Sequence record: MK327928.1 | Direction: 5' to 3' (one strand) | DNA: 64,000 nucleotides | Origin: Escherichia phage vB_EcoM_G2133 | In this document: in pieces, positions 9,085-59,491 of the stretch | How positions within the stretch are numbered: the stretch's first letter is position 1 | Layout of the letters: each line of letters opens with the position of its first letter | The notes under the pieces: model-generated | Told to the model about the DNA's origin: nothing | The model's input: only the letters and a program-made list of their open reading frames with translations | The model's database searches: none | Program-made: the position numbers and the translations under genes

Positions 9085-9316
9085 ATTTAATTAGTAATTT
9101 ACAGACACTTTCATCTAGTGTAATTACCGTATCTGTATTACTGTGATATGATTGTTTTTCAATTCGTTTAATTGCTAATATAGTATCACTTATAAGATAA
9201 AGCTTATGAAGGAGCTCAGCTCCTGTTACCATAACATTAAGATTATCTTGCTTATTAGTATGCTTCCTTATACCATCTATTAGACGATTTAAATATTTTG
9301 AATTGATGTTAATCAT
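9056..9316 (-). CDS. hypothetical small protein (paralog family 3 of 3)
   Basis: 86-aa ORF. Confidence 0.4.
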   Translation of the reverse strand: MININSKYLNRLIDGIRKHTNKQDNLNVMVTGAELLHKLYLISDTILAIKRIEKQSYHSNTDTVITLDESVCKLLIKFEEAIRGNN

Positions 9317-9322
9317 ATATCC

Positions 9323-10642
9323 TCACACATAAAACACATCATAACGACCACGAGTGACACCAACATAAAGAAGCTGCTGAGCTAATTCAGCATCTGCATA
9401 ATGAATACAAGGCGTATAAATGAAAGCACGGTCTACAGACATACCCTGCGCTTTATGGAATGTTGATGCAGGAAGTGCTTTCACTTTACTGAACTGTGAT
9501 TTAGCATCCCAAAAATCACTCCACGGAGCTTTTCCGCCTTTGTTCCAATTTTTATAAGTTTCTGCCGTTTTACCTAAAAATAGGTTAAACTTATACAATT
9601 CTTCATCGGATGAAATTATTTTAATCTTTTCACGATAATATTCATCATCGCCGTAAGTTTCTACTGTTAAATCCCAATGACGAATTAGATATTCTCCAGG
9701 AACACCACGAGCTTTAACAAACGTCGATGTATACTCTGCTTCTATAATACGAACTAATTGTCCGTTATTAAAAATAATTTCTGACACAGGCTTTCCATCA
9801 ATTTTATATGTTTTAATTAATGGTTCCTGCATTACAATAATTTCACCGACAATAAAATCTTTATCAGTTTCAAAAATCTTTTTACGAATAATGCTATTTA
9901 ACTTATCAACAGATTTATTCGTAAATGCCATTACACGATTTTCAAACAAATCATCTAGAGATTTGACGATTGAAAAATAATTTACCATAAAATCGCGTAA
10001 AGCGGTATCACCTGTAAATCCACGTACTCCATGCCCGTCAACAACTTTATCATAAATCCACTTACCGTTACGAACATCAGTAGCTACATCAATAATAGGA
10101 GCATTACTGCGTTTAACTTCAGTAAGTTCACACTGATAAAAATCTTTGTGTGTAAAGAACGGACTGATATAAGCAGTGTTTTCTCCTGGGTCAACAGGTC
10201 TAATTTGCTTATTATCACCTATTCCAATTATAGTACACCACGGCGGGATAGTTGAAAGCAGAATTTTAAATAGCTTTCTATCATACATTGACACTTCGTC
10301 GCAGATTAATACCCTGCATTTAGCTAAATCTGGTACTTCCTTCTGCTCGAAGAGGACATTTTCTTCATATGTTACTGGGTTAATTTTAAGAATACTATGA
10401 ATAGTACTTGCTTCTTTCCCTGATAGTTTTGAAAAAATCTTTTTAGCTGCATGAGTAGGAGCTGCTAAAATAATACCAGTTTCACCCGTAGATATTAAAG
10501 CTTCAATGATGAACTTAGTAAGAGTAGTCTTACCGGTACCGGCAGGTCCATTAATAGTTACATGGTGTTTCTTTTCTTTAATAGCCTTCATAACAATGTT
10601 AAAGGCATTTTTCTGGCCTTCGGTCAAATCATCAAATGTCAT
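9323..10642 (-). CDS. dda: Dda DNA helicase (SF1B)
   Basis: 439 aa; Walker A GPAGTGKTT; Walker B LICDEVSM. Confidence 0.8.
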   Translation of the reverse strand: MTFDDLTEGQKNAFNIVMKAIKEKKHHVTINGPAGTGKTTLTKFIIEALISTGETGIILAAPTHAAKKIFSKLSGKEASTIHSILKINPVTYEENVLFEQKEVPDLAKCRVLICDEVSMYDRKLFKILLSTIPPWCTIIGIGDNKQIRPVDPGENTAYISPFFTHKDFYQCELTEVKRSNAPIIDVATDVRNGKWIYDKVVDGHGVRGFTGDTALRDFMVNYFSIVKSLDDLFENRVMAFTNKSVDKLNSIIRKKIFETDKDFIVGEIIVMQEPLIKTYKIDGKPVSEIIFNNGQLVRIIEAEYTSTFVKARGVPGEYLIRHWDLTVETYGDDEYYREKIKIISSDEELYKFNLFLGKTAETYKNWNKGGKAPWSDFWDAKSQFSKVKALPASTFHKAQGMSVDRAFIYTPCIHYADAELAQQLLYVGVTRGRYDVFYV

Positions 10643-10950
10643 CGTAAATTCCCTGCAATTGGTATACTAACAATACGCCCAGTATCTAAAATTCGCTGAT
10701 ATAATCTTTGCGTGTCTACGTCAGGCTTAACATGTTTAACTTCTATTTTATTAAACCAAAATTTACGTGGAGTCTCAACTAATCTTGGAATTCCTTTACC
10801 TAAAGCTAGTCGATACTGCTCTTTAAGAGTGGTAAATACTTTATCAGCAATCTTCCATTCAAAAAATACAGCAGGACGATGTTCATCAAGCGGAACTGGC
10901 GCCGTAAATCCGTCTTTGTCTCGGTAAACTATCGCGTATACATAAACCAT
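10639..10950 (-). CDS. hypothetical protein (dda.1-like)
   Basis: 103-aa ORF overlapping dda start by 4 nt. Confidence 0.45.
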   Translation of the reverse strand: MVYVYAIVYRDKDGFTAPVPLDEHRPAVFFEWKIADKVFTTLKEQYRLALGKGIPRLVETPRKFWFNKIEVKHVKPDVDTQRLYQRILDTGRIVSIPIAGNLR

Positions 10951-10951
10951 A

Positions 10952-11698
10952 TTATCCTCGGATAAGTTTAAAAATTGAACAATTTAGCGGGTATCCTCTT
11001 TTCAGTTTAAGTTTATCAATAAAAGACAAATTTTGATACCGCTCTACACCTTGAATAATTTTATCACACATATCATATTGCATTTCTGCTTCTGACAGCT
11101 TTTTCACAATTTTCCAATCCGAGCCTTTAAGAAGAACGTTCAATTTAACAACTTCAGCGCCTTCTGCTATGCGAGAACCATCAATACGAGCTTTAAGCGC
11201 TATAATCCTTAGCTTAATGTCAGAGGTCTGTTTTGATTTAGAAAGCTGAGAAATGTGTTCAATTCGGTTTTCACGTTTTTTCTGTATAGCTTTAATTTGA
11301 TTATAAGTCTTTTTGATTTTAGCCCATTTCTTTTCATCTAAATTTAGTTTATGAACTTTTTTCGCAGATGAACGACCAATTCGCAAAGCAAATAAATCAC
11401 GCTTTTCAATCAACTCTTCTAAAGTATAATCAGAACGAAATGTATTATACTTTTTCTTTACTGCAATAACATTCCCTTTAATGTATCCAACGTTATTATC
11501 AAAACGTTCTAATGATAATTTCTCTCCTTCAACACGATTATCAAAAGGTTCTCCTGAGTAAGCACAAACTTTCTGATCTAAAATGTTCTTAATGTAATTG
11601 AAGTCTAAGTTAAAATCTTTAGAACGTCTTTTTGCAGATGCCTGGGTATGCTCTAGACGACGTTTAATTTTACGAATTTGGTTATTAGACAGCTTCAT
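10952..11698 (-). CDS. hypothetical basic protein (Srd-like by position)
   Basis: 248-aa lysine/arginine-rich ORF. Confidence 0.4.
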   Translation of the reverse strand: MKLSNNQIRKIKRRLEHTQASAKRRSKDFNLDFNYIKNILDQKVCAYSGEPFDNRVEGEKLSLERFDNNVGYIKGNVIAVKKKYNTFRSDYTLEELIEKRDLFALRIGRSSAKKVHKLNLDEKKWAKIKKTYNQIKAIQKKRENRIEHISQLSKSKQTSDIKLRIIALKARIDGSRIAEGAEVVKLNVLLKGSDWKIVKKLSEAEMQYDMCDKIIQGVERYQNLSFIDKLKLKRGYPLNCSIFKLIRG

Positions 11699-11734
11699 AT
11701 TTTTCTCACATCTTACGGACGGTTAACTACTTAT

Positions 11735-11764
11735 ACTATAACATTTTTACTTTAACTTGTAAAC
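11735..11764 (-). promoter_or_regulatory. T4-type early promoter (-10 TATAGT)
   Basis: GTTTAC (11764..11759), 18-bp spacer, TATAGT. Confidence 0.5.
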
Positions 11765-11820
11765 AACTTTATGAAAAATGCTTTAAAACTTTCATGGTAT
11801 AATGAATCTAAGTCCTTCCA

Positions 11821-12423
11821 TTATAGATTAAATCCTTCAAAATCAAGAGTATAGATAGTGTATGTTGAATACTTTTTGTACTCATATCTATCTGCAATTC
11901 TAAATACACTTCCAGCTGGTATCATTACTTCTTGTTCATCTGAAACTAATTCCATATTACGATAACGATGGCTATCTGGAAACTTAAAGTTTGGATTGTA
12001 TTCTTTACAGCGTAGAGCTTTTATAGCATACTCCTGGAAATTGAATACCATAGGAGCTTTGAATTCAAAAATAACTTGTGTGTTATATTCTAAACCAGAA
12101 GCAAAATGTAGAGCTATATTTTTATCATATGAAGCTGATACTACTTTATCAAATGTAATAATATCAATTCCTTGATTTAACACCTGCTTAGTCTCAGCTG
12201 GAACACCTCTCCAAAGAGGTTTATCGTTTGGAACCAAACGAGATTTGATTATTTCATTTAACCAAGTATGGTCATCTGGTTTATTAGTAATACAATGAAT
12301 TAAAAGTTCAATTTCAGATAAATTAAACCCTTCAGAAAGTAATTCTTCACGAATAGAAGCACGCACCGATGCATCCATTGATTTTATTTTAAAATCTTTT
12401 AGTTGCATTACCGAGTATTTCAT
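11821..12423 (-). CDS. modA: ModA-like ADP-ribosyltransferase
   Basis: 200 aa, size and position match T4 modA; paralog of the next ORF. Confidence 0.55.
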   Translation of the reverse strand: MKYSVMQLKDFKIKSMDASVRASIREELLSEGFNLSEIELLIHCITNKPDDHTWLNEIIKSRLVPNDKPLWRGVPAETKQVLNQGIDIITFDKVVSASYDKNIALHFASGLEYNTQVIFEFKAPMVFNFQEYAIKALRCKEYNPNFKFPDSHRYRNMELVSDEQEVMIPAGSVFRIADRYEYKKYSTYTIYTLDFEGFNL

Positions 12424-13043
12424 TCAACTACCTCAATATCATAAACTTTAAATGTTCCAAATGAATCGTGTAATTTTTCTTTTGAAATAGAAGTTATTCT
12501 ATACTTTCCAATTGGAATCATCCATTCCTGTTCACGCACAATCATCATTAAGTTATCAGTACGCTCTGAATCTAATCCATCAGTATCTTCATACGTGTAC
12601 TTAAACTCAGTATTAGGAGAAGAAAGTATAATATCGCTGATATGGTCAGAATAATTAAAAGCTTTATTAGTTTTTAAGCGAAGTATTATTTTAGTAAAAT
12701 ATTCAGCGTAAGAAAAAGAACATGCTGTGAGCAAACTAGTAGTAAATGAATCTACTCTATTCGTTGAAAACACTTCTCCAACTTGTAAATCTTTAATAAG
12801 TTCTTCTGTTGATTTTGATATACCACGATATAACTGATATGGTGATTTAGTTAAATGCTTTTTAATGATTTTATTCAATTGCCGATGAAGAGCTTCATTC
12901 TTTTTGGCTTCCATACATTGCCAAAGAACTGACTGCTCAAAGTCAGTAAATTTTTCACAGACCTTTTTATACATATCATATTGAAAATCGACGCTTTCAG
13001 CTTTTATAGATAACTGTTCAACATCTGCAAGATTAATAATCAT
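12420..13043 (-). CDS. modB: ModB-like ADP-ribosyltransferase
   Basis: 207 aa, 4-nt overlap with modA. Confidence 0.55.
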   Translation of the reverse strand: MIINLADVEQLSIKAESVDFQYDMYKKVCEKFTDFEQSVLWQCMEAKKNEALHRQLNKIIKKHLTKSPYQLYRGISKSTEELIKDLQVGEVFSTNRVDSFTTSLLTACSFSYAEYFTKIILRLKTNKAFNYSDHISDIILSSPNTEFKYTYEDTDGLDSERTDNLMMIVREQEWMIPIGKYRITSISKEKLHDSFGTFKVYDIEVVE

Positions 13044-13110
13044 GATAGCCTCCGTATACTTCAGAAGCTATCATATCATCGTTAGAAAGGAAAGTAAACA
13101 ACTTTTTGAA

Positions 13111-13293
13111 TTATTTTGCCCAGGGAGCCCAAGGCGGAGGGTCAAGATGGTATGAAGCTAGTTCTTCTAGAAGAGCATCTGGGGCTTCAATTCCATAATT
13201 CTGTAATACTATACGGTACTCTTTCTTATAATCACTAGAATCATTCTGGATATTCGTAGAATGATTATCTTCTAACATCTCAAATAAATCCAT
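13111..13293 (-). CDS. hypothetical small protein
   Basis: 60-aa ORF. Confidence 0.4.
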   Translation of the reverse strand: MDLFEMLEDNHSTNIQNDSSDYKKEYRIVLQNYGIEAPDALLEELASYHLDPPPWAPWAK

Positions 13294-13301
13294 ATTAATT
13301 C

Positions 13302-13772
13302 CTAGCGATAAAAACCAAATTGACGATTAGCTTCAATAATCTTTCTTTCTTCTTCGGACATTCTCCATCGTAGTCCAACATCAAAATGAGCCCAGACCAT
13401 CCTAACAAATGCATTTATATCTTTAATATCTTCAATAATGAATGTTTTACTTTTAGAAGGTTGACTCGCTAATTTAACTTTATCGTCTTCAAACATGTCA
13501 AAAAGACCATATTCATGAGCTCTTTTATAGCCTTTAATAGTTAAAGCTTCAGAAGAAGAAAATGGTGAATCTGTATTCTGCAAAATATCTTCAGTATGCT
13601 TTATAATTAGAATAATATTTTCTGGATATTTTCTTTCTTTTATATCTTTAATTAAAATATCCGGATTTTCTGCTAAAGGAATAATTAATGAGCATTTTTT
13701 ATCAAGTGTATTTACTGATTTACCTTCTTTAGACATAAATTCTATTGAATAATGTTTTGCTACTTCAATCAT
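13302..13772 (-). CDS. hypothetical protein
   Basis: 156-aa ORF. Confidence 0.45.
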
Positions 13773-13917
13773 GGGATTTCCTTTTGCCTACTAATGGACC
13801 ATCGGGAATTTTGTTTTCCTGGATATATTTCTCATTTTCTTCCATCATTTTACTGCCAATTTTAAGAAGCAAATCCAGTGCTTCATTTGCTTTAGCTTTA
13901 GCCTCTTCCAGCGTCAT
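13765..13917 (-). CDS. hypothetical small protein, 50 aa, not in ORF track
   Basis: [50 protein letters not shown]; stop overlaps next start (ATGATTGA). Confidence 0.45.
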
Positions 13918-13925
13918 ATCTTTGT

Positions 13926-14129
13926 TCACGATTTATCCCCATAGATGTCTCTCATCAATTTAAGCGCTGAGCGTTCTAATTTCTTTTCTTTCTCAGCACT
14001 AATCATTGATTTCATCCATTCTTCTGATTCGTTCTGCATTTCTTTATTTGCTTGTTCAACCCAACCATCATCAATGTACATTGAGTTTGGTCTATTGAAC
14101 CATTCAAGAATCTTCTTGAGAGCTTTCAT
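13926..14129 (-). CDS. hypothetical small protein
   Basis: 67-aa ORF. Confidence 0.4.
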
Positions 14130-14601
14130 TTATTTTACCTAAAACAATAGTAGGAGCATTGTCAAATTTATGAATTTTTAGCAAATTTGGATTTAAATTA
14201 TTCCATAAAGAGGTAATAAAATATGATAGCGCACTTTCGTCCGTAATTATAAATTTATTTCCTTTATCTATTTTCCAATCATATATTGAATCATATGAAT
14301 AGAAGGATAACGGTTTATTATTATAATATGCTTCAGCAACATCAATATAGTTAGATTTAGTAAATGCTTGAATTGCCATAAATGGAGAATTTTGTACAGT
14401 TTCAATAATTCCGATCTTTTTAAGTTTTATTTCAACATCTTCTGGAATTGGCATTGAAATAAAATCTTCTACTAGATACATGTTATTGTCATATCTTTTA
14501 TCAATCATTACTGCTACGGTAATTGGAACATCCTTGACAAACGCCATACTAATGCTATTGATAGACATTTCAAACAAAATTGCTTCCATAATTTTCCTCA
14601 A
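14104..14601 (-). CDS. hypothetical protein
   Basis: 165-aa ORF. Confidence 0.45.
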
Positions 14602-14939
14602 TCACAAGATGTAGATGAACAACTAGAATCACAAGAACTTCCACATGAATCGCCCGTCCATACATAAACAGGAACATTTGTATCATATGAATCAGAACTA
14701 GACTGTGTTTTCTGTGCATTAGATGATGTAGTAGGTGTTGACCAGCGCCAAGGATTTTTATAATATTCTTGGGCTTCTTCATAAGTCATAGTAACTGCTT
14801 CTACTGTTCCATCTCCCATATAAACATACTCAACTACAGTTAAAGGAAGGTAGTCATTTGAAATAGGAACTACACCTTCTCCGGGAGTTGTAGAGAAAAA
14901 ATCTGTAAAGAAACTTTTAAACCAATTAAAGATAAACAT
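14598..14939 (-). CDS. hypothetical protein with Cys/Ser-rich C-terminus
   Basis: 113-aa ORF ending [18 protein letters not shown]. Confidence 0.45.
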
Positions 14940-15145
14940 TACAAAAAGCCTCTCTTGAATTCGACTTGCTTTTCGCCATAATCATATCGAATCTCTGCAT
15001 TAAATTCGACAGAACCATCTGCGTACATCATAAATGAATGAACAACAACTTCTGTAGACCATGGTTGCAGTTCATATTTCTTCATTACATGCCGTGAAAT
15101 GATAATATCTAAATCTTCATTTGGTTTAATCCAACGATTTAACAT
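14939..15145 (-). CDS. hypothetical small protein
   Basis: 68-aa ORF. Confidence 0.4.
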   Translation of the reverse strand: MLNRWIKPNEDLDIIISRHVMKKYELQPWSTEVVVHSFMMYADGSVEFNAEIRYDYGEKQVEFKRGFL

Positions 15146-15171
15146 AGTGCTCTCCTCTATAAGATAATTCT

Positions 15172-15201
15172 ATTATACCATACTCATTTTGGAAAGTAAA
15201 C
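15172..15201 (-). promoter_or_regulatory. T4-type early promoter
   Basis: GTTTAC (15201..15196), 18-bp spacer, tatggTATAAT. Confidence 0.55.
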
Positions 15202-15215
15202 CGTTTAAATGAAAA

Positions 15216-15237
15216 AAGGACTCCCGAAGGAGTCCTT
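15216..15237 (-). terminator. stem-loop with UUCG tetraloop downstream of soc
   Basis: aaggactcc-cgaa-ggagtcctt, 9-bp stem. Confidence 0.55.
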
Positions 15238-15241
15238 GAAT

Positions 15242-15487
15242 TTATTCACCAGTTACTTTCCACAAATCTTCATTTGCAGCAATCCATTCAGTACGTTGAT
15301 TTTCTTCATATACTGTAGAATATGCTGCTTTTTCTGAAGGGAATGTCTGGTAATGAGCGCCAGAAATTTTGTGAACGTCAGAATAAAGAGGGAAAGCTAC
15401 GGAAATTTCCTTTCCTTCAATTTTCTTATTTCCATCTAATTTCTGCTCAAATGTTTTGATATTAACATAACCGCGAGTACTAGCCAT
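15242..15487 (-). CDS. soc: small outer capsid protein Soc
   Basis: 81 aa, MASTRGYVNIKTFEQKLDGNKKIEGKEISVAF; own late promoter. Confidence 0.8.
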   Translation of the reverse strand: MASTRGYVNIKTFEQKLDGNKKIEGKEISVAFPLYSDVHKISGAHYQTFPSEKAAYSTVYEENQRTEWIAANEDLWKVTGE

Positions 15488-15503
15488 GTAATTCTCCTTT
15501 TAT

Positions 15504-15713
15504 TTAAATTACATGATTATTTATAATAAATTCTCGCGGAACGGTAAAATATCCAATTTTAGTTAATATAACAACATCGCCGTTAATAATTACCGGAGAA
15601 TAATCGTCTGGAGCATTAAATTTCCAATGGGCTCTAATATTATATCCATCAGAACCAAATGCTCGACTAGCCGGTCTCCCGGCTTTTTGCCATGCATAAA
15701 AATCAAATTTCAT
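15504..15713 (-). CDS. hypothetical small protein
   Basis: 69-aa ORF. Confidence 0.4.
   Translation of the reverse strand: MKFDFYAWQKAGRPASRAFGSDGYNIRAHWKFNAPDDYSPVIINGDVVILTKIGYFTVPREFIINNHVI
15518..15525 (-). promoter_or_regulatory. late promoter TATAAATA for soc
   Basis: exact TATAAATA on minus strand about 30 nt upstream of the soc ATG. Confidence 0.55.
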
Positions 15714-15916
15714 TTTGAATGCTCTATAATTAATTTTAAGGCTTCTTCACGCACCAACTTGCCTAATGGTATATGACCAGTTTTAATTGTGTAAGCTTTG
15801 TGGAGCTGATTAGATAAGAGCTCGTATGTGAGCTCTTTGTCATAATTTTTAAATAGCTGGTCAATACGTTTCTTGCGGGCTTTCTTAAGCTGGCGTTTAT
15901 TTAAACGAGCCATCAA
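15710..15916 (-). CDS. hypothetical basic small protein
   Basis: 68-aa ORF. Confidence 0.4.
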   Translation of the reverse strand: MMARLNKRQLKKARKKRIDQLFKNYDKELTYELLSNQLHKAYTIKTGHIPLGKLVREEALKLIIEHSK

Positions 15917-16431
15917 TAACCTCGGTCTTGACGAGCGAAGTTTTCAGCATTTTTCAGATAATAAAGTTTAAAGATTTCTTCAGCTGACATTCCAAGAGCA
16001 ATGAATTTATTCATGAAAAAGTGAAATTGGTCAATCAGTTCAAATTTAATTTCAAGCTGATCTTCAGGAGATAAGTCTTGAATTTTCTTGGATTGCATTT
16101 CAGAATAACGTTTCTTCCAAGGTTTCCATACGGCAGAAGCTTCTTTTTCACCATTACTCATACCACCAAGAGAAGTATATAGCTCGCGAGTTTCGTCTGC
16201 GATATAATCGTCTTGGTTTCGCAGCCAAGCAAGAACTTCTCCTGCGGTTTCAAGTGAATCAGGATGACGATTTGTTTCTGGTTTATCATTAGCCAAACGA
16301 ATCTGTAAATGCCGCTGCATATCAAGCATAACCTGCAGTGGGTCAATATTGTGCATAATATTCTCAGCATATGCACGATTTGCTTTATCAACACCTTCGA
16401 TCAAATGAGCACATTCATTAAAGTGAGCCAT
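15913..16431 (-). CDS. 56: dCTPase/dUTPase gp56 (MazG-like); start at ATG 16431
   Basis: 172 aa from MAHFNECAHLIEG with AAGGA ribosome-binding site; track ORF extends upstream through the promoter. Confidence 0.7.
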   Translation of the reverse strand: MAHFNECAHLIEGVDKANRAYAENIMHNIDPLQVMLDMQRHLQIRLANDKPETNRHPDSLETAGEVLAWLRNQDDYIADETRELYTSLGGMSNGEKEASAVWKPWKKRYSEMQSKKIQDLSPEDQLEIKFELIDQFHFFMNKFIALGMSAEEIFKLYYLKNAENFARQDRGY

Positions 16432-48815: not shown

Positions 48816-49727
48816 TTAAGATTTAAGTAAATCAACAATTTTAATTAATTTTTCACGTTCAGATTTAGCTTTACTACTCAATCCAGATAGTCTAAAGATT
48901 TCATCGTCATATTGTTGAATAGAAATATTCAGCTCTTCAATCTGTTTATTAAAATAATCAATTTGTTCAGAATGTTTTTCATTACTACGAACTGATACAG
49001 GTTTTGTAGGCAATTTAGTTGAACTAGATTCATCCGGGCGATAAATTAAAATACAACTTGAACCAATTGGACATTTTGCACCAGATGAATATTCTAATGT
49101 TCCGGCTTCTTTTAAAACTTCAAAAGCTAAACAGAGATGATGCCCCATATTAACATAATCAGTAGAGCGAGCTCTGATGTAATAATCATCTCCGCGAATA
49201 CTAAATTTAAAGCATTTAAGGTCTTCTGTATTATTGGTCTTAAAAATCATTTGTTTATTTAGACCTTTAGCTAATCGAGCGCCTAATGCTAATAATCGTC
49301 GTTGATTTTCCCACAAATCTGCGATCATTTGGTCAAATGATAATTTCGGCATTAGTCGACCATAAAGGTCGTATCCTTTATTATAATTGCGAAGGATTTC
49401 ACTCGCGTTAATACGGGACAATGCTCCAATTTTATTAAGGGCTTTCATAATGCGATTAGATAAACTCATTCCAGACCCGTTTGTTCGCTGTAAATGTTTT
49501 TCTAATCCAAATCCAATATCAACTTTAAATTTATCTAAAATTTCAGCATGAACATCTCTGTCAATAACATTCAAATCCAGAGTTGGGTTAAATCTATGAA
49601 AAAATTTATCTGGCTCTCCACGACGAAGTACAGTCCATTCATTCATCATTTTTTTATTAACTAAAGATTTAATTACTGCATTGACATTATTAATTACGAC
49701 TGACATATTTTCCTCACTCAATTTCAA
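48816..49727 (-). CDS. coiled-coil C-terminus protein, paralog 4 of 4
   Basis: 303-aa ORF. Confidence 0.5.
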   Translation of the reverse strand: MKLSEENMSVVINNVNAVIKSLVNKKMMNEWTVLRRGEPDKFFHRFNPTLDLNVIDRDVHAEILDKFKVDIGFGLEKHLQRTNGSGMSLSNRIMKALNKIGALSRINASEILRNYNKGYDLYGRLMPKLSFDQMIADLWENQRRLLALGARLAKGLNKQMIFKTNNTEDLKCFKFSIRGDDYYIRARSTDYVNMGHHLCLAFEVLKEAGTLEYSSGAKCPIGSSCILIYRPDESSSTKLPTKPVSVRSNEKHSEQIDYFNKQIEELNISIQQYDDEIFRLSGLSSKAKSEREKLIKIVDLLKS

Positions 49728-52137: not shown

Positions 52138-52174
52138 TTTATTCTCCAAATCTGTATCAGTAGTTGATAGTTGT

Positions 52175-52204
52175 ATAGTACCATAAAGCTTTATGCTTGT
52201 AAAC
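52175..52204 (-). promoter_or_regulatory. early promoter variant (-10 TACTAT), repeated promoter-leader family
   Basis: GTTTAC (52204..52199), 18-bp spacer, TACTATAC. Confidence 0.45.
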
Positions 52205-52235
52205 CGTTTTGTGAAAAAATTTTTGAAATAAAAAA

Positions 52236-52253
52236 GGGGACCTCTAAGGCCCC
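52236..52253 (-). terminator. G/C stem-loop with one bulge
   Basis: ggggacc-tctaa-ggcccc after the stop of ORF 52263..52748. Confidence 0.4.
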
Positions 52254-52262
52254 TTTATGCTT

Positions 52263-52748
52263 TTATTCCATTTCTATTATATGCATGTTCTTTTTGCTAT
52301 CAAAATATATGTTTTTAACTGTTAACTCCGAATTAATTGGCAATAAAAACTCTCTTTCATAATCTACCATACAAAGGTTATCATAAAGCTTGTTAAGCTT
52401 ATCATCGTCAGTTTGGCCAGATTCTTCAATTGCGATTAAATTTTCTAAAATGTCAATCATAGCAGTCGAATAGTCAAAAACGTTTGCATTTTTTAACACT
52501 ACTAAAACATTAGTCATATAGCGTTCTGCAGCAAACGTTTCAGCTATATGAGACTCACTGCTAAAGGAAGTTATTCTTTTAAATTTGATTCTCCTATTAA
52601 CTTCAAACTTATAAGATAGCACTTCCTCTATTGTAAGTCCTCTAAAAAGTGTGTCTTTAATCTCAAGTTTGTCTTTAATGTAATCATTAACACGCTTATG
52701 ATTAAAATTATTAATTTTGTTGCCAAGGCATTGCATTAAAATATGCAT
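52263..52748 (-). CDS. hypothetical protein
   Basis: 161-aa ORF. Confidence 0.45.
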   Translation of the reverse strand: MHILMQCLGNKINNFNHKRVNDYIKDKLEIKDTLFRGLTIEEVLSYKFEVNRRIKFKRITSFSSESHIAETFAAERYMTNVLVVLKNANVFDYSTAMIDILENLIAIEESGQTDDDKLNKLYDNLCMVDYEREFLLPINSELTVKNIYFDSKKNMHIIEME

Positions 52749-52794
52749 TGTATTCTCCTCAATTTTTAAAGAGCAATTAATTAACTACACGTAT

Positions 52795-52824
52795 ATTATA
52801 ATATGCTTTGCGGCAGAAGTAAAC
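52795..52824 (-). promoter_or_regulatory. T4-type early promoter
   Basis: GTTTAC (52824..52819), 18-bp spacer, TATAAT (52800..52795). Confidence 0.55.
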
Positions 52825-52854
52825 AACTTTGTGACGTCATTTTAAACAAAAAAA

Positions 52855-52870
52855 GGAGCCCGAAGGCTCC
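52855..52870 (-). terminator. stem-loop ggagcc-cgaa-ggctcc
   Basis: 6-bp stem, UUCG loop, after the stop of ORF 52874..53884. Confidence 0.5.
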
Positions 52871-52873
52871 CTA

Positions 52874-53884
52874 TCATTTATAATAACTTCGATGGTTTTC
52901 AAGATAGACTTTCTCAAGGAAGTCATCCCAAAAACCCATGTCCACTTTTTGCTGCATACCGTTCTTAGAAGCTTCAGTAGATGCTGCTTCTACTTGATCG
53001 ACCACATCTTCCAAAAACTCTTGAACGGTTTTAAATGGATGTTTACCCAACTTCACGTCGAGAATAAATGGAGCGTCTTGAAGTGGATAAACCAAGTCGC
53101 CAGTTTTGTAAATTTCCAATAGTTGAAGTCCACCACGACAGGCATGGCTCAGAGCTTTCCAGTCAATACCTTCATTGGCTTCGGCCTTACGAGCACGTTC
53201 ACCATATTCAGCATCTAATTTGTTCAGTGACTGCTTAAGCTCAATAAGAGAAAGAGTTGTCTGATATTTACGACCCAACACTGTGTAAAACGTTTGTGGG
53301 CCTGTTTTCTCATGATTATGGAACACCCATTCACAGAATTCGTTTTCTGGAAGACGATGCTTAATATCTTCAACTTTAGTACGACGCTGCTTAATGGAAC
53401 CGTCTTCTTGGTAATCAACCCATTGCTCAGGGATTTGATTAACTACTTTCAATACATCACGTAATGCAGCCAAACGAGAACCCTTGACACCGTATTTAGA
53501 AGCTTGCTTGCGGACATATCCTAAATAGGATTTCATGTTAGTCGTATAAAAACGAGAACGGTTGTCTTGAATAAACTTCCATACATCAGGCAAATCGGAT
53601 TTAACCACTAGTTCAGGTGGAGTGTGAAGCATATCCAACGCTACAGTTTCACCATCTGCCGCTAATTTAAAGAAATATTTAAGACTGTATAGTTCATGGT
53701 CAATATCATCTTTAGTGTTTTTAGATGATGTGTTGTTAGTGTTTTTACTCATGTGCTCTTTGACATTTCCGATAAGAATATCACGAGCAGGAGGAACAAA
53801 AATTTCTTTAAAATCTACATCAGATTCTGGGGTAGAAGTTCCATAAAGATGACTACCAAAATAAGACTTAACTACAGTTTTCAT
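52874..53884 (-). CDS. predicted nucleotidyltransferase (pol-beta superfamily fold)
   Basis: 336 aa from MKTVVKSYFGSHLYGTSTPESDVDF (GS-x10-DxD signature). Confidence 0.45.
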   Translation of the reverse strand: MKTVVKSYFGSHLYGTSTPESDVDFKEIFVPPARDILIGNVKEHMSKNTNNTSSKNTKDDIDHELYSLKYFFKLAADGETVALDMLHTPPELVVKSDLPDVWKFIQDNRSRFYTTNMKSYLGYVRKQASKYGVKGSRLAALRDVLKVVNQIPEQWVDYQEDGSIKQRRTKVEDIKHRLPENEFCEWVFHNHEKTGPQTFYTVLGRKYQTTLSLIELKQSLNKLDAEYGERARKAEANEGIDWKALSHACRGGLQLLEIYKTGDLVYPLQDAPFILDVKLGKHPFKTVQEFLEDVVDQVEAASTEASKNGMQQKVDMGFWDDFLEKVYLENHRSYYK

Positions 53885-58839: not shown

Positions 58840-59042
58840 TATTCTTCTACGTGCTGTTTACGACCTTTCTTATCAATAAAGGTATATTCAACGAATGTTC
58901 CAATGTAGTCTTTATCTACATCATGTGGACTATTAATTGGACATTTAGTACGGCAAATGCGTTCCCATTGACGGATAATTACTGCCTTATTCTTTGGGTC
59001 ATACGGATGTGGATAATGTATATTCATAATAATGGTTCCCAA
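58815..59042 (-). CDS. hypothetical small protein
   Basis: 75-aa ORF. Confidence 0.4.
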   Translation of the reverse strand: MGTIIMNIHYPHPYDPKNKAVIIRQWERICRTKCPINSPHDVDKDYIGTFVEYTFIDKKGRKQHVEEYCLKVTWL

Positions 59043-59491
59043 TCAACAATCACAATTTCTAATTTAGAAGAATATGTATCTAAAATCCCCTCAATAATAT
59101 CCCAGTTCCCTTTACCTATGCCTGCACCAATCCTAGGCATATAGATTGTAGGTTTAATCAGTTTATTTTCACCAAACTCATTTAATTCTAACATACAATT
59201 CATTAAAGCGGAATACTCAAAATTTGGCCCTGGTTGAAATTGAGTATAAAGGTTGAAGCAATACGCTTTATGAGTCCTAAAGTATTTTTCATAGACTGAG
59301 TAAGAACCGAGTTTAGTTACATCACCCCATTCAGTCTGTAATTTATCAGCTTCCAAAATTTTAGGGAAAGCTTTGGTTAATTGACCTGCGACTCCAGCTT
59401 TCATCGTGTGAAAACAATTACATCCATGCGCAATATTTTTACCTTCAGCGAAAAGGGCGACAATATCGCCCTTAATATATTTTACAATCAT
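59024..59491 (-). CDS. macro-domain-like protein (tentative ADP-ribose binding or hydrolysis)
   Basis: 155 aa; IVALFAEGKNIAHGCNCFHTMKAGVAGQ resembles the macrodomain N-x-x-N / G-x-G core. Confidence 0.4.
   Translation of the reverse strand: MIVKYIKGDIVALFAEGKNIAHGCNCFHTMKAGVAGQLTKAFPKILEADKLQTEWGDVTKLGSYSVYEKYFRTHKAYCFNLYTQFQPGPNFEYSALMNCMLELNEFGENKLIKPTIYMPRIGAGIGKGNWDIIEGILDTYSSKLEIVIVDWEPLL

Follow-up and report, generated by a model that had tools for sequence, protein, structure and literature searches.

Two adjacent open reading frames (ORFs) in the genome of Escherichia phage vB_EcoM_G2133 (MK327928.1) are, with a probability of about 0.96, the orthologues of the phage T4 genes modA and modB, which derive from a tandem duplication and encode early-expressed, arginine-specific mono-ADP-ribosyltransferases of the R-S-ExE clade (cholera-toxin/C3-like type). 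The two genes are present as paralogues that keep an intact catalytic motif and the ADP-ribosyltransferase (ART) fold, and they lie in synteny with T4. The window referred to below is the whole stretch of DNA that was analysed, 64,000 nucleotides in length. The genes at and around the locus are the following:

9323..10642: dda homologue, flank on the srd side, order as in T4
10952..11698: srd homologue, flank of modA, order as in T4
11821..12423, minus strand: modA ORF, 200 amino acids, ATG start
12420..13043, minus strand: modB ORF, 207 amino acids, ATG start
13111..13293: modA.2 homologue, flank of modB, order as in T4
Beyond modB, on the same side as modA.2: modA.3 homologue, with a Pfam T4_MRH match

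A preliminary description of this DNA had reported adjacent ORFs of 200 and 207 amino acids at the modA/modB position of T-even phages. Both are found at the same coordinates in the ORF list, on the minus strand, and their flanking genes follow the same order as in NC_000866. The two reading frames share four nucleotides (ATGA), which hold the TGA stop of modB and the ATG start of modA. The window comes from a T4-like (Tequatrovirus) genome in which the T4 order dda, dda.1, srd, modA, modB, modA.2 is kept, and the pair occupies the srd–modA–modB–modA.2 position of the Tevenvirinae early region. The same gene order is annotated in T4 NC_000866 and in phage FriedrichMiescher. Window positions 9323-15525 are colinear with T4 9410-15610 at 97.4% identity, and the 1.9-kb locus is matched by approximately 500 Tequatrovirus records at a DNA identity of at least 95%. 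With regard to the window as a whole, the G+C content is about 35% throughout and the GC skew is negative and uniform. The best match to the whole window among phage records reaches 95.6% identity over 25 kb and no record is identical, a partial match that is normal for mosaic T-even phages.

The window also departs from T4 in several places. Between dexA.2 and dda, it contains around 230 bp more than T4 (9091..9323), and a small hypothetical ORF is annotated there in phage FriedrichMiescher. T4 positions 15610-16307, with the segF homing-endonuclease gene, have no match, and about 425 bp of other sequence is found instead (window 15525..15950). As measured at T4 position 49000, the window is shorter than T4 by approximately 3.2 kb.

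At the protein level, 198 of 200 residues are identical between the window protein and T4 ModA (99%; NP_049635, UniProt P39421), and 198 of 207 between the second protein and T4 ModB (96%; NP_049636, UniProt P39423), with no gaps in either alignment. The first protein shares with T4 ModA its length of 200 amino acids, its locus between srd and modB, the residues R72, S96 and E163-x-E165 and the same upstream and downstream signals, and differs from it only by S53T and C185Y, neither of which touches the catalytic motif. Likewise, the second protein has the 207 amino acids of T4 ModB, the same locus, a leader that is 100% identical and the R73-G74 and E171-x-E173 residues, and differs by nine substitutions (K54R, H55Q, E58K, K80E, H105L, E118K, T119I, D126N and K182R). 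The ModA allele is found with 100% identity in phages Kelasse and ECO95, and the ModB allele, which shares 99.5% identity with the sequence that represents a 712-member cluster, is therefore a common variant. Compared with T4, modA differs at 11 nucleotides and modB at 26; nine and 15 of these, respectively, lie in codons with an unchanged amino acid, and the other 11 in modB are in changed codons. As the differences are mostly synonymous, both genes are under purifying selection, and are thus real genes and not chance ORFs. No evidence against orthology with T4 modA and modB was found.

In T4, the targets of ModB include S1, EF-Tu and trigger factor (PMC3014915), and with NAD-capped RNA the enzyme places RNA chains on arginines of S1 and L2, a reaction known as RNAylation (PMC10468400). 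Since the window ModB differs from that of T4 at nine positions, its target range or its RNAylation efficiency could differ slightly. A shifted target range or RNAylation capacity in this allele would fit with the non-synonymous share of differing nucleotides, higher in ModB (11/26) than in ModA (2/11), and with the charge changes E58K, K80E and E118K, which the model places in surface helices. However, the R-S-ExE residues are untouched by the nine substitutions and the allele is widespread, which makes such a shift unlikely, and a ModB that acts as its T4 orthologue does is the preferred reading.

The relationship between the two proteins, described earlier as paralogous, is borne out by BLASTP (26% identity over 179 residues, E=8e-15). 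Both also match PHROG 832, 'RNA polymerase ADP-ribosylase' (1e-33 for ModA and 3e-41 for ModB). Searches of Pfam-A, NCBIfam and PDB sequences with ModA and ModB gave no match. Near-identical homologues carry a precomputed PF26816 label, and the copy of Pfam that was searched returned no match; this silence of the Pfam, NCBIfam and PDB libraries is attributed to their content, since PHROGs, structure and the comparison with T4 are all decisive.

In a tblastn search of a phage collection, Mod-family matches were found at 1438 places in 928 records. Among the rows sampled, every record with a ModA of at least 96% identity had two such places, and distant Tevenvirinae (Klebsiella, Serratia and other Escherichia phages, with 25-38% identity) had one. 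These sampled rows suggest that two Mod paralogues per genome may be a Tequatrovirus feature.

The catalytic motif is formed by W71-R72-G73, S96-A-S98 and E163-Q-E165 in ModA and by Y72-R73-G74, S99-F-T101 and E171-Q-E173 in ModB. The preliminary description had left the R-S-E residues to be inspected by alignment with T4; the triad is complete in both proteins and, together with the 99% and 96% identity and the ART fold of the models, it upholds the assignment to ModA and ModB. With regard to the wider family, a word-indexed homologue search gave three proteins, and a profile search together with an exhaustive search of representative proteins was used instead. The Mod family appears small: of the 1.84 billion representatives scanned exhaustively with the profile, 64 reached E<=1e-3. 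When 43 full-length members were aligned, the only columns without variation besides the start methionine were R72, G73, S96, E163 and E165 (ModA numbering). In T4, ModA E165A shows no ADP-ribosylation (PMC11404850), the ModB double mutant R73A,G74A has no catalytic activity, and the burst of T4 with this mutant is about four-fold smaller (PMC10468400). The residues that are essential in the T4 enzymes are all kept in the window ModA and ModB.

AlphaFold2 models, built on an alignment of 13 sequences, were obtained with a pLDDT of 91.5 and a pTM of 0.84 for ModA, and of 88.5 and 0.83 for ModB. In both, a mixed beta core comes after four helices at the N-terminus. The ModA model has R72 on strand 70-73 and S96 on strand 95-98, with E163 and E165 where helix 149-163 meets strand 165-168; as modelled, this placing of the R, S and ExE residues in the secondary structure is the layout expected for R-S-E enzymes. 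In a Foldseek comparison with the PDB, all 50 of the top 50 matches for each model were ADP-ribosyltransferase toxins or effectors of the R-S-E clade (E 1e-6 to 5e-4, probability 1.00, TM about 0.4-0.55). The ModA model was closest to Certhrax, Iota Ia, XopAI, HopU1, C3, Vis and Tre1, and the ModB model to Plx2a, Vis, Certhrax, Iota Ia, CDTa and C3 (E about 1e-6 to 1e-5); VIP2 and ExoS were also among the fold matches. The best match of the ModA model in BFVD was Sf22 ModA, with a TM of 0.95. Aravind's group places ModA and ModB in a 'Mod family of the RSE clade' (PMC9503650).

The C3-like, Iota/CDTa, Certhrax and Vis toxins (PDB 4fk7, 4h03, 1g24, 4xzj, 5urp) resemble the phage enzymes in fold class and in the R / S-x-S / ExE layout of the active site. 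Conversely, these bacterial R-S-E toxins show only 10-18% sequence identity to the phage enzymes, with a TM of about 0.45-0.55, and the phage enzymes are intracellular early proteins that are not secreted, have an N-terminal four-helix region of their own and act on other targets. Another comparison is offered by Alt, which T4 injects, and which belongs to the R-S-E clade and has an overlapping target, Arg265 of RNA polymerase alpha. Unlike the Mod proteins, Alt is large and packaged in the head; it belongs to the Alt/VIP2 family, and its gene lies elsewhere in T4. No Alt-like match was found among the window ORFs with the Mod profile.

Several signals for expression surround the two genes:

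11735..11763, minus strand: early-type promoter between modA and srd, predicted by consensus scan (TTTACA, 17-nt spacer, TATAGT, TG)
12420..12423, minus strand: ATGA stop/start overlap; immediately before the modA ATG stands GAGG, which resembles a Shine-Dalgarno sequence
13035..13080, minus strand: RNA hairpin over the modB start, its 3' arm with GGAGG and AUG, its 5' arm overlapping the -10 hexamer
13070..13098, minus strand: early-type promoter upstream of modB, predicted by consensus scan (GTTTACT, 17-nt spacer, TATGAT, TG before the -10 hexamer)

The sequence at 13070..13098 probably acts as a promoter, GTTTAC being the T4 early -35 consensus (PMC1524935). The ATG of modB is preceded by a GGAGG Shine-Dalgarno sequence, and the 111-nt modB leader, with the promoter and the hairpin, is 100% identical to that of T4. 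The ATGA overlap and the GAGG sequence suggest that the translation of modA may be coupled to that of modB, and the predicted promoter at 11735..11763 marks the downstream boundary of the modB-modA unit. The hairpin over the modB start has a folding energy of -20.8 kcal/mol (z=-5.19), and none of 200 shuffled sequences folds as well. As its 5' arm overlaps the -10 hexamer, transcripts that start at the proximal promoter should be translatable, since they would lack this arm. In transcripts that read through from further upstream, conversely, the hairpin should close the modB ribosome-binding site. The same hairpin logic is documented for the T4 genes e, soc, 49 and I-TevI, and modB is absent from the examples of hairpin-controlled T4 genes in that source (PMC3014915).

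In T4, ModA is made early and ADP-ribosylates Arg265 on both RNA polymerase alpha subunits, which blocks the contacts of the alpha C-terminal domain (alpha-CTD) with UP elements and CRP, and the deletion of modA has little phenotype on laboratory hosts (PMC2988021). The activity, targets and timing proposed for the window proteins draw on their 96-99% identity to these experimentally studied T4 proteins. After infection, host RNA polymerase would initiate at the T4 early-type promoter that immediately precedes modB, giving one transcript for modB and modA, on which modA would start where its ATG overlaps the modB stop (ATGA). In each enzyme, the strand with the Arg, the strand with Ser-x-Ser/Thr and the ExE loop would hold NAD+ between them, and arginines of host proteins would receive the ADP-ribose on their side chains. 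Given the identity with T4, ModA would act on Arg265 of both alpha subunits, and the alpha-CTD would lose its contacts with UP elements and CRP. On the same grounds, ModB would modify proteins of translation (ribosomal protein S1, EF-Tu, trigger factor and L2) and, with NAD-capped RNA as donor, may place whole RNA chains on S1 and L2.

The two genes are adjacent, as the preliminary description held, but the pair is not the full count of Mod-family genes in the window. When the family profile was compared with all six-frame ORFs of the window, it recovered modA, modB and a third gene at 52263..52748, the next best match having E=0.038. The third gene and its surroundings are arranged as follows, in the direction of transcription:

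52872..52853, minus strand: terminator hairpin upstream of the third gene, a cassette boundary
52823..52795, minus strand: early promoter of the third gene, a cassette boundary
52263..52748, minus strand: third Mod-family ADP-ribosyltransferase gene, 161 amino acids, with R36, S61-F-S63 and E131-R-E133, absent from T4
52253..52237, minus strand: second hairpin, downstream of the third gene, a cassette boundary
52203..52175, minus strand: nrdC.10 promoter, downstream of the third gene

The profile E-value of the third protein (1.4e-43) is inflated by the inclusion of its 93%-identical orthologue in the alignment. In BLASTP, it shows 27% identity to ModA (E=7e-10) and 30% to ModB (E=1e-13), and it also matches PHROG 832 (6e-24). 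Its R36, S61-F-S63 and E131-R-E133 residues fall in line with the catalytic columns, and it lacks the stretch of about 37 residues with which ModA and ModB begin, their two N-terminal helices. A 161-aa 'ADP-ribosylase' of phage ACG-C40 in BFVD matches the ModA model with a target-normalised TM of 0.79. At the third-gene locus, ACG-C40 encodes a protein with 94% identity to the window ORF; judging by phage name and length, the BFVD entry is probably the protein of that locus, and the model lends indirect structural support to a third ART.

The third gene lies between the homologues of nrdC.11 and nrdC.10, where T4 has only a gap of 114 bp. In its flanks (52170..52880), the boundary modules are imperfect direct repeats, and the single boundary module of T4 looks like a recombinant of the two modules of the window. 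This layout resembles the promoter-early/stem-loop cassettes that are proposed to shuffle genes among T4-type phages. The gene is found at an identity of at least 90% in 43 phage records, and it occupies the same locus in all five of the phages examined: SV76 (species T2), SYGD1, 215Ecol030PP, ACG-C40 and the Moonvirus CF1. In relatives, it has been annotated automatically as 'ModA', 'ModB' or 'ADP-ribosylase', and a search of the literature for this third Mod-family gene found no paper.

A 2025 preprint describes a counter-defence function for Alt, and flags a ModA orthologue in a Mokosh type I transposon screen (bioRxiv 10.1101/2025.11.20.689424). We tentatively suggest, at clearly less than even odds, that the third Mod enzyme may be an accessory effector with a host target of its own, for instance in counter-defence as for Alt, and, as a separate matter, that the modB hairpin may limit the toxic ModB to transcripts from its own promoter.

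The preliminary description had further supposed that the window encodes both writers and a reader or eraser of ADP-ribosylation. With regard to gene content, this holds, as the window includes a macrodomain gene outside the modA/modB unit:

59024..59491, minus strand: tk.4 (adfM) macrodomain gene, 155 amino acids, Pfam Macro

A functional pairing does not seem likely, given the distance of 46 kb and the anti-DarTG2 phenotype of this gene. The protein scores 25.0 bits against Pfam Macro (PF01661), for which the gathering score is 22, its sequence matches in the PDB are BT1257 and Poa1p-type, TARG1 and DarG-type macrodomains, and it is identical to T4 Tk.4 at 153 of 155 residues. In a writer-eraser cycle, Tk.4 would take off the ADP-ribose groups placed on host proteins by ModA and ModB. 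This would be in keeping with a genuine macrodomain that exceeds the Pfam gathering score and is related to TARG1- and DarG-type hydrolases, and with the location of all three genes in one early region and on one strand. However, tk.4 lies 46 kb from modA and modB, is not co-transcribed with them and, by its published anti-DarTG2 phenotype, probably shares no substrate with them, and Tk.4 homologues are found in around 2,700 phage records, as compared with around 930 that have a Mod-family gene. Moreover, cleavage of Arg-ADP-ribose is not known for macrodomains. The marks left by ModB are arginine N-glycosides, which ARH1 removes and ARH3 does not (PMC10468400), and the hydrolases that remove them are of the ARH1 type. 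In the 2025 preprint, in which Tk.4 was renamed AdfM, a transposon screen gave one significant hit, tk.4, as the sole gene that T4 needs conditionally on a DarTG2 host, its clean knockout was sensitive to DarTG2, an effect specific to this system, and the activity proposed for AdfM was the removal of ADP-ribose from DNA (bioRxiv 10.1101/2025.11.20.689424). Given this reported role against host DarTG2, Tk.4 is probably not an eraser of the ModA and ModB marks, and a writer-eraser cycle between these genes appears very improbable.

As an observation on Tk.4 itself, the window protein differs from that of T4 only by G31K and S32A, in codons 31-32 (about 59396..59401), through a clustered change of several nucleotides (GGTTCA to AAAGCT). 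The HTMGxG loop is not kept in the window, which has HTMKAG; G31 is conserved in T4, RB69, Sf23, CHI14 and rV5, and the loop is otherwise conserved across five genera. The K31-A32 allele was also found in phage BYEP02 and in one IMG/VR contig.

That one or both Mod genes are decaying duplicates with catalytically dead products, as the dispensability of modA on laboratory hosts and the absence of Pfam and NCBIfam matches might suggest, is close to implausible given two full-length frames with all motif residues intact, mainly synonymous substitutions, exact or near-exact alleles common to hundreds of phages and confident structure models.

With ModA and ModB as active orthologues of the T4 enzymes, the biology concerned is already known: two of the best-known phage ADP-ribosyltransferases are found in another T4-like genome, and their alleles are already in public databases. 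The value for annotation is that the window would carry the T4-type set of host-takeover enzymes, including a ModB predicted to perform RNAylation. The side observations are worth more than the main finding. Tk.4 G31K offers a naturally occurring loop variant of an anti-DarTG2 factor that was described only recently, and the third ART is the one item that is perhaps worth follow-up. If this third Mod gene is an active accessory enzyme on a mobile early-gene cassette, it would constitute a natural experiment in target diversification.
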